Positions 22,601 to 64,000 of a stretch of 64,000 nt of DNA are shown piece by piece. How positions within the stretch are numbered: the stretch's first letter is position 1; each line of letters begins with the position of its first letter. The stretch is taken from NCBI RefSeq assembly GCF_963506605.1, contig NC_083276.1, positions 84,630,001 to 84,694,000 on the forward strand. Direction: 5' to 3'. The DNA comes from Zootoca vivipara. Its lineage: Eukaryota. The notes below the pieces were generated by a model. The model saw nothing but the letters and a program-made list of their open reading frames with translations. It made no database searches and was not told the DNA's origin. Position numbers and translations under genes: made by a program.

Positions 22601-25600
22601 TGGTTTCTAGAAGTCTTCACATTAGAAGAAGCAATTATGGCTAGGAAAGGCGGAATTGATATTGGGGGGGGGGCGGATTTCCAAGAAAGCTCAACAAAAT
22701 TTGGGGTGTCCTGGTTTTTACTTTTTGAAATACTGTATGGCAACCCTAATATTGGCAATTATGTAATTTCTGCATTCCCCAGATATTACAGAAAGGACCA
22801 CCACGTAGCCAGCGTGTACAACCAATTTGTAGGAATACCTTTGTAACCTCAAGGATAGGCTACTATGATGCACTCTGTTTGGGTTGCATTCAGTTACTAT
22901 CTGGTGGGTTCAGCTAGTAGACAGTGTGGGATCCTGCTTCCATGCTGGGGTATGCCTCAAAAGATGGATGACACCTGTCATGTAGCATCTGCATTGGCTC
23001 TCTGTCCTGTTGCATTCCAGGCACAATGCAAGGTGCTAAATCTGATCTCTTAAGCCCCTTTGGCCGTTATGATTACTGAGTGCCTTCTTGAATACATTGT
23101 CCATGCACCAAATTCAAACAGCAAGGGCATGTGCTGTAGATACCGTGTTTCCCCTTTTTTAAGACACCGTCTTATAACTTTTTTTCCTCAAAAAAACACA
23201 AGGTGTCTTATTTTCAGGGGATGTCTTAATTTTTTATTACCATTTTTATTATGGACCCACCCTGGGGAGCAACTTCCTTTAAAAAGAGACAAGGAAAAAA
23301 GAGCAAAGGCAGCGGTGAGGGAGACACTTTGTGCATGCTCAGAGACCACCCCATCCCCAGCTATAAACCCACCCCGGTTTTCCAAGACGCCTTTTCCCCG
23401 GCACTGGACTGGCGGGGGGATGTGAAGGGGGTGTCTCTCTGTGCATGCTCAGAGGCAGCCTCGTCCCGGGCGCCGCTATGGGAGTGGAGGGCACTCACCT
23501 AACCATGACCCAGATCCCGGCCACGACGAGGCGCCGTGTGCCGGCAGCGGACTGAGCCGGAGCCCCTGGTGCAGGCCAGCGTTGAGCTCACTACCGGCCC
23601 CGCCGAGCACAGCCACGGGCCCATCGCCCAGCCCGCCCGCCTGCCTGCCTCCCGCTTCCCTGCCCACAAAATTCCGGCGGCGGGCCATGCAGCCCATGCC
23701 GCTCCAGCAGAGCGGAAGGGGCCAGCAGCGCTTCCGCCGCCGTCCGCACCCCGGCGCCACAGAAGGACCCGCGAGCCTCCCGCCACCGCTCTGCCTTGGG
23801 CCATGCGGCCCACAACATTCCGGCGGCGCGGATGGGGCCAGCAGGGCTCCCGCCGCCGCCCGTCACCCTGGCAGGGCCAGCGGGGCTCCTGCCGCCGCTC
23901 TGCCTTGGGCCATGCGGCCCACAACGTTCTGGCGGCGCGGATGGGGCCAGCAGGGCTCCCGCCGCCGCCCGTCACTCTGGCAGGGCTAGCGGGGCTCCCG
24001 CCGCCGCTCTGCCTCGGGCCATGCGGCCCACAACGTTCCGGTGGTGCAGAAGGTCCAACGGGCCTCCGGCCGCCGCTCTGCCTCGCCGCTCTGGCTGGGC
24101 ACTCCGCCCGGTGCTGCTGGACGTTCCGAGCGCTCGGCGCTGCGGAGCGCTCCACTCTGCAGCCGCCTGTTCCGGCGGCGGGGCGGCAGGCCTCCTCGGC
24201 CGGGCCAGGAAGAGGCCAGGCCGCTGGCTGGGCGCTCCACCCGGCGCTGCTGGGCGCTCTGAGCGCTCGGCGCTGCAGAGCGCTCCACTCTGCAGCCGCC
24301 TGTTTCGGCAGGTGGCTCGCCGCTGCAGCAGCTGGTTCCAGGCCCCGCTGGCTGGCTGGGGCGCTTGGCGGTCTCGCTGTATATGGTATGAGAGGTATGT
24401 CTTATTTTCGGGGGGTGTCTTAGATATAGCAACTCCTAAAAAATGCTGCCATGGCTTACTTTATGGCTACGTATTAAAAAAGGGGAAACACGGTAGGTGA
24501 GTTTGGTGGCTGACCTATAATTGCAGAACTCCTTTGTCCTAGAGTCCTTTGTCCAATCAAAGTCTGGGCCTGTAAGCTCTCCAGAATGGTTGCAGAACAT
24601 TTTTTCTTTGGCCTGGCATTCTGTGGCCAGGGTTAATCAAGCATGGTGTGATTTTGTTTGTTTGTTTGTTTTCTATATGAGTACTATTTCATCTTCTTTT
24701 TGTTTGTGTGTGTCATATTATTCTGTGCACTTGTAATTATGTCCTTTTTATTTTTCAATCTCTCTCTATATAAATGTTCCCACTTCGTGCGTGGAGGTCA
24801 CACCCTTGCTCTGTAACCGCTGAACCAAATTGCATCAAATTAGGGTAAAGCGTACCTTGCCCATCAGGGAGGGATCTGGCATAATTTCCCCCTCAAAAAA
24901 ACCACACCTTTCACACCTAAAATAATGATTAAACACAAAAAAGGTGGCGCCCAAATTAGACATCACCAGCAGAAGGTCTGAAGACTCCAGCAGCATCCAA
25001 TAGAAAGACAGAACGCACGCTGCTGCCTCCAAAGCCGTGCCACCAGATGACATCACAAAATTCCACAGCAACCAACTGAAAACAGGCCTTTTGCAGCAAC
25101 AAGGCCCAACTTTGCCCAGCAGACTGAATAGGCCGCAGCAGACTAGGCCGCTTTCCAGACTAGGCCAAGTGGAGGTAGGGGCCTGCCGGGGGGGATGGGG
25201 GGGCTGAATAGGGGGCATCGTATGGTTGCTTTGAAGTGCAATACTGTAATCTACCTGGAATCCTTGGGGAAAGGTAGGATAGAAATTGAATGCACCAAAC
25301 AACTTAAATAAAGGGCAGATTGCACAGATATTCCTAAAGGGGTAGGGGTGAATTAGATGTGCCCAACACAAAAGCCCCTGGACCTATTTACCTGCAATAT
25401 GGCAGTTTATCTACTCTGGAAAGGCTGCTATGTATCCACTTCTGTCAAAGGTGAAAAAAGTCAGTCGTTTTTTTAAAAATCCCAATAGCGAATAAAGGTG
25501 AGGAGAAGGAAGCAGGGTAAGATAGACCTCCCCAAGCTAAACTGGGCAGGCTCCAAACTGATCTGAGCCAAACTGGGCTATTTTATGAAGTGCCAAATTC

Positions 25601-29023: not shown

Positions 29024-30374
29024 CCGTGTTTCCCCTTTTTTAAGACACCGTCTTATAACTTTTTTTCCTCAAAAAAACACAAGGTGTCTTATTTTCAGGG
29101 GATGTCTTAATTTTTTATTACCATTTTTATTATGGACCCACCCTGGGGAGCAACTTCCTTTAAAAAGAGACAAGGAAAAAAGAGCAAAGGCAGCGGTGAG
29201 GGAGACACTTTGTGCATGCTCAGAGACCACCCCATCCCCAGCTATAAACCCACCCCGGTTTTCCAAGACGCCTTTTCCCCGGCACTGGACTGGCGGGGGG
29301 ATGTGAAGGGGGTGTCTCTCTGTGCATGCTCAGAGGCAGCCTCGTCCCGGGCGCCGCTATGGGAGTGGAGGGCACTCACCTAACCATGACCCAGATCCCG
29401 GCCACGACGAGGCGCCGTGTGCCGGCAGCGGACTGAGCCGGAGCCCCTGGTGCAGGCCAGCGTTGAGCTCACTACCGGCCCCGCCGAGCACAGCCACGGG
29501 CCCATCGCCCAGCCCGCCCGCCTGCCTGCCTCCCGCTTCCCTGCCCACAAAATTCCGGCGGCGGGCCATGCAGCCCATGCCGCTCCAGCAGAGCGGAAGG
29601 GGCCAGCAGCGCTTCCGCCGCCGTCCGCACCCCGGCGCCACAGAAGGACCCGCGAGCCTCCCGCCACCGCTCTGCCTTGGGCCATGCGGCCCACAACATT
29701 CCGGCGGCGCGGATGGGGCCAGCAGGGCTCCCGCCGCCGCCCGTCACCCTGGCAGGGCCAGCGGGGCTCCTGCCGCCGCTCTGCCTTGGGCCATGCGGCC
29801 CACAACGTTCTGGCGGCGCGGATGGGGCCAGCAGGGCTCCCGCCGCCGCCCGTCACTCTGGCAGGGCTAGCGGGGCTCCCGCCGCCGCTCTGCCTCGGGC
29901 CATGCGGCCCACAACGTTCCGGTGGTGCAGAAGGTCCAACGGGCCTCCGGCCGCCGCTCTGCCTCGCCGCTCTGGCTGGGCACTCCGCCCGGTGCTGCTG
30001 GACGTTCCGAGCGCTCGGCGCTGCGGAGCGCTCCACTCTGCAGCCGCCTGTTCCGGCGGCGGGGCGGCAGGCCTCCTCGGCCGGGCCAGGAAGAGGCCAG
30101 GCCGCTGGCTGGGCGCTCCACCCGGCGCTGCTGGGCGCTCTGAGCGCTCGGCGCTGCAGAGCGCTCCACTCTGCAGCCGCCTGTTTCGGCAGGTGGCTCG
30201 CCGCTGCAGCAGCTGGTTCCAGGCCCCGCTGGCTGGCTGGGGCGCTTGGCGGTCTCGCTGTATATGGTATGAGAGGTATGTCTTATTTTCGGGGGGTGTC
30301 TTAGATATAGCAACTCCTAAAAAATGCTGCCATGGCTTACTTTATGGCTACGTATTAAAAAAGGGGAAACACGG
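29024..30374. mobile_element. 1351-bp GC-rich non-autonomous element, copy B
   Basis: Same length and orientation as 23143-24493; internal ORF translations identical at offset 5881. Confidence 0.85.
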
Positions 30375-30560
30375 TATCAGGTTACACTAAGACCTCCTAA
30401 TGGCTGATCTCCCATCTCTTCAATAATGAAACCTGAATAAAACCTGGATAATAGCCCCTTAAGGTGGTGCCAGAGACAGTGGAATCACCCACCTGTATAC
30501 TTTGTAATTAAGTCTTTAATCATGCTTCCCACTAGTTTTCCCAGAATAGATGTTAAGCTA

Positions 30561-62122: not shown

Positions 62123-62853
62123 TAGTGGACCATTAATATTCATATTAGGATAATAATATCAAATTTGTAAAAGAATGTATGGGTTAGGGTATTTTTGTAT
62201 ATATTCATATAATGTTTTTCCCCCTTAAAAAAAAGTAGTTCAGAGAAAATCCCAACCACTGTGTGATATACCCGACACTTAATATAGGATACATAGTTGT
62301 GTTCATGGTACAGAACTTAGTACAGAACCCCTGCTGTTCCAATGTCGGAAACAATGAGGTGTGCAGGGCATCCAGAGGTTACACCCATGGTTTTCATCCC
62401 ACGATAGAACCACAGATCATTACATTAATCCACCCCCTCCATCCACCCCCACTTATCTATATTCCAAACCTTTGCTTTCAGTCTTCAAGAGTAAACAGAA
62501 AATGCTTTTAATTTTGAAACAGAAATGGCCTCTAATGCCAGCAAGCTATGCCAGTGAAGTGTCCAATGAACTGCAGATGTGGTCCATTTACAAACGTTTT
62601 TTCCAAATTGCAACACTTGGGATTTGCTGGCACAGAATCTGGAACATAGCACCACCTGTTAGCACAATGATCATTCCCTACCTTCTTTACTCTTTCAAGT
62701 AGTTTCCAGGACTTTGCAGGCTAGTCTCAAGCAGCTTCTATGTCCTTGGCTTTTAAATGAAATTACAGCGGAGCACAACCTGGAAAATTTTTCACTTCCA
62801 CCCTTTATTATGCATCTCTCCAGCTTCCGGGGATTTATAAGGTTCTCCTTGGT

Positions 62854-63999
62854 CTAGGAGTTATAGGAGCAGCTGGAAGGGGAGGTCAGGGGAGAGGAGA
62901 AACTGCCCCTGCCAGGGATCTTATTTACTCTGCTCAGGAGCCTGCCAGAGATATCTGGGAGATGAGGTGTCATTCCCCCTCCTGTCCAGTAGGCTCCTCT
63001 TGGGATGTGTGCATGGATTGCTCTGCCGACGCATGGATTCCTGTCCCCTCTGGGCCAGTTGGAATGGTCTACAAATATATGGTTTCCACACAGGAAAGGA
63101 TTGCCTCCAGTATGGAGCTGCCTTGCCCCTCTCTGAGGTGGGTTGTTTATGTTGGGGAGCTGGCTCATACTGCTTGCCCACTTGTCTCCTTCTGAAATGG
63201 GCTCTTTGGAAGGCTGGTGCCCTCTGCACAAAAGCTTCCTCGTTCCATCCAGGAATTTCCTCATGCCTCCCAGAAGCCCTTCCGAGCTCTCCACTGGCTG
63301 CTTCCTGCCTCCATTGGGTCCCTGACCCTGCTCCTCAGGTGGCACAGCTGGCGGAGTACTTCCAGTTGTCCCCCTAAGGGAGGCGGGTGATGCTTCATTG
63401 CGACCCGAAGACGGCCTGCTTCCAGAAGCCGGCCTGTAGCCAGCAGGTCCTTGAGCATCTTCAGCATCTCCAGAAGATGGATCCAGAGGGTCGTGGGAGT
63501 AGCCACATCTGGGATGTGAGATGCATTCCCTCTGAGGGTTATTCCAACCCGTAGGGAACTCAAATTCAGGAGTCGTGGCATCTTTAAGCTCCGATTCATT
63601 CTGCTGCGGGGGCCACTCATACACAGGTGAGTACTCGCAATCATATGGAGACTCGTACACCGGGGAGTCCTTGCAGGTATAGTGCGTTTCGTATATTGGA
63701 GGAGTATCGTAGCCGTATTGCCATTCATACAAAGAAGAGTTGTCGAACCTGTACTGAGACTTTGGTCCAGAGGTCTCATATATGTATGGCGAATCAGATG
63801 GAGAGAAGTCATCATCGTACTGTGACTCATAAATGGGGGAGTATCTGCAGCTATACCGAGGGTCATATATGGTAGAAAACTCATACGCATTTTGTGACTC
63901 GTACACAGGAGAGGCTGTGTATTTACAATGGGCTCCATTTTTCTTCACAGGAGATGAGCACCTGGAAGGCATCTCATAAGCCGTGTAAGAACTGCATCC
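62854..63999 (-). CDS. Terminal exon of an upstream gene encoding Tyr-rich 12-aa repeats; possible fifth DNAJB2-family copy
   Basis: ORF 62854..63972 stays open to the window edge (>=381 aa); AATAAA at 62809-62804; same strand and array-like spacing; repeated SP[VI]YE motif. Confidence 0.7.
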   Translation of the reverse strand, partial: GCSSYTAYEMPSRCSSPVKKNGAHCKYTASPVYESQNAYEFSTIYDPRYSCRYSPIYESQYDDDFSPSDSPYIYETSGPKSQYRFDNSSLYEWQYGYDTPPIYETHYTCKDSPVYESPYDCEYSPVYEWPPQQNESELKDATTPEFEFPTGWNNPQRECISHPRCGYSHDPLDPSSGDAEDAQGPAGYRPASGSRPSSGRNEASPASLRGTTGSTPPAVPPEEQGQGPNGGRKQPVESSEGLLGGMRKFLDGTRKLLCRGHQPSKEPISEGDKWASSMSQLPNINNPPQRGARQLHTGGNPFLCGNHIFVDHSNWPRGDRNPCVGRAIHAHIPRGAYWTGGGMTPHLPDISGRLLSRVNKIPGRGSFSSPLTSPSSCSYNS

Positions 64000-64000
64000 A

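Follow-up and report, generated by a model that had tools for sequence, protein, structure and literature searches.

The window analysed here, 64,000 nucleotides from the lizard Zootoca vivipara, covers part of a tandem array of five J-protein genes at the DNAJB2 locus and ends inside the tyrosine-rich last exon of the fifth copy. By Pfam matches the locus order is ABCB6-like, ATG9-like, two alpha-tubulin genes, copies 5, 4, 3, 2 and 1, and a protein-tyrosine-phosphatase gene, an order that we take to resemble the human TUBA4A-DNAJB2-PTPRN block. All five copies lie on the minus strand. Copy 1 (window 6892 and below, running past the left edge) is taken as DNAJB2 because its tail is UIM-like (weak UIM match, E 0.0064). 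Copy 2 (25710-16105) keeps a degenerate UIM-like stretch. For copy 3 (about 40925-32545), scans of the locus found two J exons and then a Ser/Lys-rich last exon of 545 aa (acceptor 34181), but no middle exons. Copy 4 (57202-45796) encodes 256 aa with a short acidic tail, conserved in one gecko and one snake model, that carries a single EPIYE at about 45957.

Copies 1, 2, 4 and 5 have a common exon skeleton and differ mainly in their last, phase-1 exon. Before it, exon lengths are 65/110/54/117/81/106/71 nt in copy 1 and 74/110/51/90/72/94/71 nt in copy 5. Phases and the 110- and 71-nt exons of copy 5 agree with those of copies 1, 2 and 4, and lizard DNAJB6 also has matching exons. The DNAJB6 gene is on a different contig, as is an intronless DNAJB8-like gene.

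The in-window part of the copy-5 last coding exon occupies 62854..64000 (minus strand) and closes a J-domain co-chaperone gene that is intact, spliced and encodes 649 aa. An open frame runs from the window edge to a TAG stop at 62854-62856; the exon begins at a phase-1 acceptor 241 nt beyond the edge, and in full comprises 1,388 nt to the stop, encoding residues 188-649. An AATAAA poly(A) signal follows about 45 nt past the stop, at 62804..62809 on the minus strand. Two overlapping alternative frames (227 and 137 aa) were set aside, since the splicing phase and the orthologues use the Tyr frame.

The gene has eight coding exons on the minus strand, with GT-AG introns throughout and an intact frame. 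The other seven lie 2.6-9.6 kb upstream of the last, beyond the window edge. In extended coordinates (contig position = 84630000 + coordinate), exon 1, with the ATG, is at 73820-73747 (74 nt) and exon 2, with the HPD, at 72787-72678 (110 nt), both J-domain exons; exon 3 is at 71884-71834, exon 4, with an F-x-F and a helix-5-like segment, at 70254-70165, exon 5 at 69411-69340, exon 6 at 67967-67874, exon 7 at 66929-66859 and exon 8 at 64241-62854. The initial annotation, made from the window, had proposed that the exon is the tail of a fifth J-protein, and this is borne out; it had suggested looking in the next 10-20 kb of the minus strand for J-domain exons of 65 and 110 nt, of which the 110-nt exon is there while the first J exon has 74 nt, not 65. 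It was likewise right about the AATAAA after a Pro/Gly/Ser-rich region and about the single EPIYE in copy 4.

The 649-aa model is letter-for-letter identical to a database protein (P0011). Contigs of run X1, from a related lizard, skip 7/7 predicted copy-5 introns at the exact predicted bases; X1 is another organism and its RNA status is a guess, yet joints placed exactly at GT-AG borders show that the molecules were spliced. The last X1 piece has a loose end that continues into the Tyr repeat region, and by its length the contig would end near 62793, close to the AATAAA. Some orthologue models are shorter: 5/19 are without the 72-nt exon (P0017, P0026, P0028, P0030, P0031) and three of 19 without the 51-nt helix IV exon (P0021, P0025, P0032), through alternative splicing or annotation error.

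Pfam finds the J-domain alone in P0011 (PF00226, residues 6-69, 89.6 bits against a cut-off of 27.8). It is N-terminal, keeps the HPD and has an AlphaFold2 pLDDT of about 90. After a short, Gly-poor linker with F-x-F-R comes a predicted helix, residues 93-101, that aligns to helix 5 of DNAJB6 (6U3R). The segment is thus predicted to be helix-5-like, a counterpart of the autoinhibitory helix of DNAJB6, which gates Hsp70 binding (passages of PMC12126530 and PMC10624832). With a 19-row alignment AlphaFold2 was confident for the J-domain and helix 93-101 and gave pLDDT <50 for 540/649 residues; nearly everything after residue 105 is predicted to be disordered, although low pLDDT from 19 rows is no proof of disorder. 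The S/T-rich segment and C-terminal beta-domain exons are present, but STST is lost, the sequence has diverged and pLDDT is <50; this region is not recognisable in the protein of the turtle Gopherus. Pfam finds no UIM, the C-terminus is not CAAX and the ESM Atlas gave no usable match. Tyr sulfation or secretion was ruled out by the cytosolic J-domain start and by the lack of a hydrophobic stretch (maximum 19-residue hydropathy 0.81).

The last exon also encodes conserved elements downstream of its Tyr array. An amphipathic-helix-like motif (63220..63276, minus strand, residues 510-528) has LDGT and three Leu invariant in 23/23 rows, turtles included. Two L-P-x-I motifs follow on the same strand, at 63148..63159 with Pro550 and at 62950..62961 with Pro616, each Pro invariant in 23/23; the second lies within the basic C-terminal block (residues 508-649, pI 10.2, 12 Arg). 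The order of acidic block and then basic, Arg-containing C-terminal block is found in 8/8 proteins profiled. Turtles and several paralog tails (copy 3 and a further copy at C1:90.6 Mb) likewise have L-P-x-I motifs with an invariant Pro, in the paralogs close to the C-terminus. Candidate leads on their role are SxLP, an EB-binding motif, and PxLPxI, which binds ankyrin repeats.

The best solved relatives by sequence and fold are DNAJB6 and DNAJB2 (PDB), and copy 5 belongs with the class B J-domain proteins of the DNAJB2/6/8 lineage, apart from DNAJB2 proper. With DNAJB2/HSJ1 (PDB 2LGW) it shares locus, strand and exon skeleton, and its J-domain is 76% identical to human 2LGW; it differs in the S/T stretch and beta-domain exons, diverged in copy 5, and in its end, where the Tyr array, helix motif and two LPxI stand in place of UIMs and the CAAX terminus is missing. 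DNAJB6b (PDB 6U3R) is the best sequence match (E 4.7e-30 over residues 5-190) and Foldseek rank 1; copy 5 keeps its F-x-F and helix-5-like segment, whereas the DPF after helix 5 is replaced. Copy 5 is a multi-exon tandem copy on a branch separate from lizard DNAJB6 and the intronless DNAJB8-like gene, with a 460-aa tail that has no Pfam match.

The Tyr-rich acidic array (residues 256-398) begins 38 nt beyond the window edge and occupies 63610..64000 on the minus strand. It has 25 Tyr in 143 aa, a pI of 4.4 and a consensus unit of about [ST]-P-x-Y-E-x-[QPH]-Y-x-x-x-x. Three 12-aa units stand in register in a first run (63805..63912) and three and a half in a second (63607..63738), both on the minus strand; the seven peptides quoted in the initial annotation are all present in these runs, and the 36-nt period it had claimed is borne out by DNA self-identity, which compared with 500 codon shuffles reaches z 7.3 at lag 36 (value 0.48) and z 4.2 at lag 72 (value 0.42). 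In the protein, 11 pairs of Tyr lie 12 residues apart where 3.8 would be expected (z 4.3). The array is absent from Tandem Repeats Finder output, and the repeat is therefore old and degenerate. It was matched once in its own genome (1.44 Gb), with neither a dispersed repeat nor a second copy seen, a count that is a lower bound.

Two protein searches for relatives gave 7 and 18 clusters, 5 of them shared; all 19 named ones are squamates and one is unnamed. Lacertids, an amphisbaenian, a cordylid, iguanians, a varanid, snakes and geckos are represented, under the annotations ‘uncharacterized’, ‘hypothetical’ or ‘J domain-containing’; orthologues or closest relatives among RefSeq/UniProt gene models are LOC114584453, LOC103279114, LOC106545764, LOC127059034 and LOC102462961. 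In two models, P0027 and P0029, copies 5 and 4 are run together into one protein, a sign that a snake and a gecko have this gene order too. A profile weighted towards the tail had nine matches among 1.84 billion representatives: three named squamate, two unnamed similar, two turtle and two mollusc. The two from molluscs, repeat proteins P0037 and P0039, were discounted as compositional matches; P0037, an unrelated tyrosinase-like protein of the snail Bulinus truncatus, ends in a near-perfect 12-aa Tyr/acidic repeat of similar spacing, apparently by convergence.

The turtles are Gopherus and Pelodiscus, and a turtle query retrieved just their two clusters. Like copy 5, both proteins contain a J-domain, the LDGT motif of the helix and the C-terminal LPxI, and Gopherus aligns to squamate copy 5 with an hhalign probability of 100%, J-domain included. 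Their Tyr arrays have periods of 25 and 18, and their middle exons are not recognisable. They are relatives of copy 5 by sequence and candidate orthologues. Protein searches with length and word limits gave no bird, crocodilian, tuatara or mammal relatives, which does not imply absence.

The main tree has 19 rows and 200 columns; neither it nor an earlier, shorter tree includes copy 3 or the C1:90.6 Mb copy. Its eight squamate copy-5 proteins group together in a starred clade (100/99), whose node with the two turtle sequences has 83/78. Among the paralogs copy 4 comes closest (94/90, not starred), and copy 5 stands apart from the pair of DNAJB6 and the DNAJB8-like gene (98/98). AU tests rejected none of three alternative groupings (p-AU 0.069, 0.41 and 0.10), the 0.069 being for copy 5 with DNAJB6. 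The trees settle neither a DNAJB2 versus a DNAJB6 origin nor a grouping of copy 5 with copy 4 to the exclusion of the turtles. We infer that copy 5 arose by tandem duplication of DNAJB2; since no alternative was rejected, the case for this is made by locus and exon structure more than by the tree. The array had been described as an amplified version of the copy-4 tail. Copy 4 is indeed nearest in the tree, but the likeness of the tails is weak (blastp E 0.15, hhalign 1.1%); their score exceeds 300/300 shuffles for lizard and gecko copy 4 and not for snake, whose copy-4 tail is without IYE. Amplification from a shared ancestral copy-4/5 tail is possible.

Across 19 squamate array blocks there are 22-33 Tyr per block and a net charge of -6 to -19. 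Y[ED] occurs 14 times in this protein against 3.5 in shuffles, and 262 against 67 pooled over 18 blocks; [IV]Y[ED] occurs 7 times in this protein against 0.2. Pooled over the 18 blocks, YxxQ (70 against 22), [ST]PxY[ED] (55 against 1.4) and Y[ED]x[QPH]Y (70 against 2) also exceed shuffles, with the significance of all pooled counts overstated by shared ancestry. YxxP is not enriched (3 against 2.6 in this protein; pooled 56 against 47.8, a count reached by 111/1000 shuffles), nor are YxN (9 against 8.7) and Yxx[LIVM] (27 against 36.7), both pooled over 18, and Y[ED][ED]I has no occurrence in the 18 blocks. Among 258 Y[ED] sites, position -1 holds Ala in 32, Ile in 32, Val in 29, Pro in 28, Leu in 26 and other residues in 111; I, V or L thus precedes 87/258, and +3 is mostly Gln, Ser or Pro. 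Sites preceded by I, V or L number 8 in the Zootoca protein, the most, and 2-7 in other orthologues.

The p130Cas substrate domain and EPIYA repeats have many Tyr in short repeats of a disordered region. Copy 5 is like them in its many Tyr in short repeats and its predicted disorder, and differs from them in having no YxxP enrichment, no conservation of Ile/Val at -1 and no second Pfam domain, so that on its motifs it would not be classed with these scaffolds. The initial annotation had likened the array to Src/Abl substrates with SH2 docking of the p130Cas and EPIYA type, a likeness that is weakly supported: Y[ED] is strongly enriched, while YxxP is not and Ile/Val at -1 is not conserved. The array looked Src-like because this lizard's copy has the most I/V/L-preceded sites.

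In the 35 Tyr-majority columns Tyr fills 529/630 cells, and the conservation of Tyr columns is 0.86 against 0.35-0.39 for Ile/Val columns, so that no other large class of array columns is as well kept. Four Tyr or Trp columns of the array stay unchanged when the turtles are added. The 101 replacements in Tyr-majority columns include Cys 43, Asp 13 and Phe 12 times. Aromatics are spaced more evenly than the shuffle mean in 20/20 blocks (at a level of 5% or less in 9/20), partly as a by-product of periodicity. Pooled Tyr-Tyr distances are enriched at lags 2, 4, 6, 8 and 12, and depleted at odd lags 1-13; in Pelodiscus lags of 9 and 27 are frequent. The turtle arrays have 0-1 YxxP. PxY[ED] is above the shuffle mean in 20/20 blocks (1-6 against 0.2-0.5) and forms the core that squamates and both turtles have in common. 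The WW-domain consensus [LP]PxY occurs 0-1 times in each of 18 squamate blocks and not at all in Gopherus, with 3 PPxY in Pelodiscus; [ST]PxY occurs 1-6 times per squamate block. What is conserved is a property, Tyr with an acidic +1 residue, and not a site code of -1 Ile/Val or YxxP.

Co-occurring transcripts hint that copy 5 is expressed in testis or spermatids. Spliced contigs of an AKAP3/4-family gene, with exons joined across a CT..AC intron, are found in 3/3 runs checked (X1, X5, X6); X5 and X6 are linked to the copy-5 exon through a word index (share 0.23), and X1 is the one run aligned to copy 5 itself. The three runs lack tissue labels and may be pooled samples, and contig depth cannot rank expression. 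Contigs of X20, a run with a word share of 0.00, left the AKAP exons uncovered, a result given no weight since contigs can show presence but not absence. In raw reads of X14, X15 and X16 (RNA, with one species label shared with the best DNA matches; about 6% of each run was read) intron repeats were covered and copy-5 exon bins had no depth. Zootoca itself has the family (PF05716, 372 bits), with three genes, at C5:15.70-15.72 Mb and C5:90.86 Mb, two of them in tandem. The sperm specificity of AKAP3/4 in lizards is carried over from mammals. Portions of PMC11276731 describe AKAP3 and AKAP4 as fibrous-sheath proteins of mammals and note that lizards have a fibrous sheath. Probable germ-cell expression would be a likeness of copy 5 to the testis paralogs DNAJB3, DNAJB7 and DNAJB8; in mammals DNAJB7 is spermatid-enriched, and Dnajb3 and Dnajb8 are post-meiotic (sections of PMC10064739).

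To one reading we give a probability of roughly 40%: that the copy-5 tail is a multivalent Tyr sticker which, in male germ cells after meiosis, tethers the J-domain and Hsp70 to a granule or structure under assembly. The acidic Tyr array would hold the protein at the assembling structure, and the tethered J-domain would bring Hsp70 to the assembly. Tyr may contact Arg-rich partners or the protein's own basic C-terminal block, the helix-5 gating may be released inside the assembly, and phosphorylation of Tyr or Ser-Pro would act as a switch, not as a code of specific SH2 sites. The reading fits because one chain holds an acidic Tyr block and a basic Arg block, with conserved composition and a replaceable unit. 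FUS-type prion-like domains are not strongly acidic. The strongly acidic array counts against the sticker, which would need a basic partner or phase. Tyr-Arg and Tyr-Tyr contacts drive FUS condensation (PMC10888811); with FUS/FET low-complexity domains copy 5 shares predicted disorder, abundant Tyr and even aromatics, and it has an Arg-containing block in the chain, whereas its array is strongly acidic (-6 to -19), contains Pro, is strictly periodic and is fused to a J-domain, without being uncharged and G/S/Q-rich and without an RNA-binding domain in Pfam. Condensates can open autoinhibited DNAJB1, according to excerpts of 10.64898/2026.10.17.759813. Also counting against the sticker, Tyr gives way to Cys much more often than to Phe, a pattern that plain aromatic stacking explains less well than either mutation bias or a requirement for the hydroxyl, for phosphorylation among other things.

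We hold it rather unlikely that the array is a multisite phosphotyrosine scaffold, in which a tyrosine kinase acts processively on YE sites and SH2 proteins dock, linking signalling to Hsp70 recruitment. Y[ED], [IV]Y[ED] and pooled YxxQ exceed shuffles and Phe seldom replaces Tyr; given the strong enrichment of Y[ED], phosphorylation may well occur. Mammalian sperm proteins become tyrosine-phosphorylated at capacitation (PMC11276731), and a Src-family kinase reportedly phosphorylates the DNAJB6b J-domain (PMC13503143 and its preprint). The lack of YxxP, YxN, Yxx[LIVM] and Y[ED][ED]I signals speaks against docking, as do the mixed -1 residues, a +3 that is mostly Gln, Ser or Pro, and turtle arrays with almost no YxxP and another period; passages of a lizard capacitation paper (PMC11083041) give no tyrosine-phosphorylation result for lizard sperm.

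The sticker reading has a variant, also somewhat improbable, in which the condensate is self-made. In this reptile germ-cell J-protein a phospho-switchable Tyr/Glu array, rebuilt independently in squamates and two turtle lineages (12-, 18- and 25-residue units), would pair with the Arg-rich block and so open the protein's own helix-5 gate on Hsp70. Copy 5 would then belong to a tandem set of DNAJB2 genes that direct Hsp70 to different targets through a swap of the last exon alone.

ODF1, an outer-dense-fibre protein, fuses a chaperone domain to repeats. Copy 5 might similarly be a structural sperm protein, its tail polymerising (cross-beta or Tyr/Cys cross-linked) into an accessory structure whose assembly the J-domain chaperones. 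This is a doubtful prospect. The enrichment of even and depletion of odd Tyr-Tyr lags is as for one strand face, but lag parity follows automatically from a 12-aa unit, and the frequent lags in Pelodiscus are 9 and 27. Cys is the commonest Tyr replacement and AKAP3/4-family contigs co-occur; on the other side, the array is about 10% Pro, one per unit, and AlphaFold2 gives it no strands.

With similarly low probability, the array serves as an acidic spacer or solubility tail under loose constraint, the functional parts of a largely redundant gene being the J-domain, the C-terminal helix with LPxI and the conserved middle exons. Leaving out the near-duplicate P0012, orthologues are on average 92% identical to copy 5 in the J-domain, 86% in the middle segment (residues 109-164) and 80% in the helix motif, against 57% in the array and 55% in the acidic stretch. 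Turtles have a rebuilt unit, the search matches include no relative from birds, crocodilians or mammals, and Dnajb7 knockout mice are fertile (as told in sections of PMC10064739), so that the role of copy 5 may be minor. Against a mere spacer stand the conservation of the Tyr columns, unmatched by any other large class in the array, the four Tyr or Trp columns that hold even with turtles, and the flanking Pro/Gly/Ser linker, which is just 41% identical.

Very improbable is the reading that low-affinity PY motifs (P-x-Y-E) recruit WW-domain NEDD4-family ubiquitin ligases in replacement of the UIM link of DNAJB2, where UIMs route clients to the proteasome (passages of PMC5409130): PxY[ED] exceeds shuffles in every block, Pelodiscus has its PPxY and the copy-5 last exon occupies the place of the DNAJB2 UIM exon, but canonical motifs are nearly absent from the squamate blocks and absent from Gopherus, and two agamids have a single PxY[ED].

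Copy 5 is known from database gene models, and its type of tail is without a description in the literature searched. Queries with six squamate LOC ids gave no papers and no description of copy 5 was found, subscription papers and other papers' expression supplements being outside the scope; a search on a J-domain protein with tyrosine-rich tail, condensate, spermatid and Hsp70 also found none. The 19 supplement files of Hara 2018 (PMC5901865) contain no ‘DNAJB2’, and of three ‘dnaj’ places the two shown are DNAJC3. J-proteins decide where Hsp70 works, and copy 5 keeps the gated DNAJB2/6 head while carrying an unusual type of tail that is kept in lizards, snakes and two turtles. With five copies that differ in their last exons, the locus is a natural experiment in the evolution of J-protein specificity. 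Should the sticker model hold, copy 5 would offer a single-chain system for condensate and tyrosine-phosphorylation control of Hsp70 recruitment, and a candidate for reptile sperm assembly; should it fail, copy 5 is an undescribed reptile-lineage chaperone of modest general interest.

Some further genes and repeats were noted. A sixth multi-exon DNAJB2/6-like gene lies on the plus strand at C1 about 90,611,400-90,621,100, about 5.9 Mb off; its 391-aa Lys/Glu/Gly-rich last exon ends in an LPxI motif like those of copies 3 and 5. Two intronless DNAJB6/8-like genes, probably retrocopies, are at C2:41.36 Mb and C7:27.21 Mb. One alpha-tubulin last exon (L003:6139-7161, minus strand), about 4 kb upstream of copy 5 and on the same strand, ends in Tyr; the second alpha-tubulin (L006:5965-6969, plus strand) has an end without Tyr. 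Within the window, a near-identical GC-rich block with 109- and 133-nt tandem units is present twice, at 23509-24497 and 29390-30387, about 5.9 kb apart, one copy within a copy-2 intron and the other upstream of copy 2.
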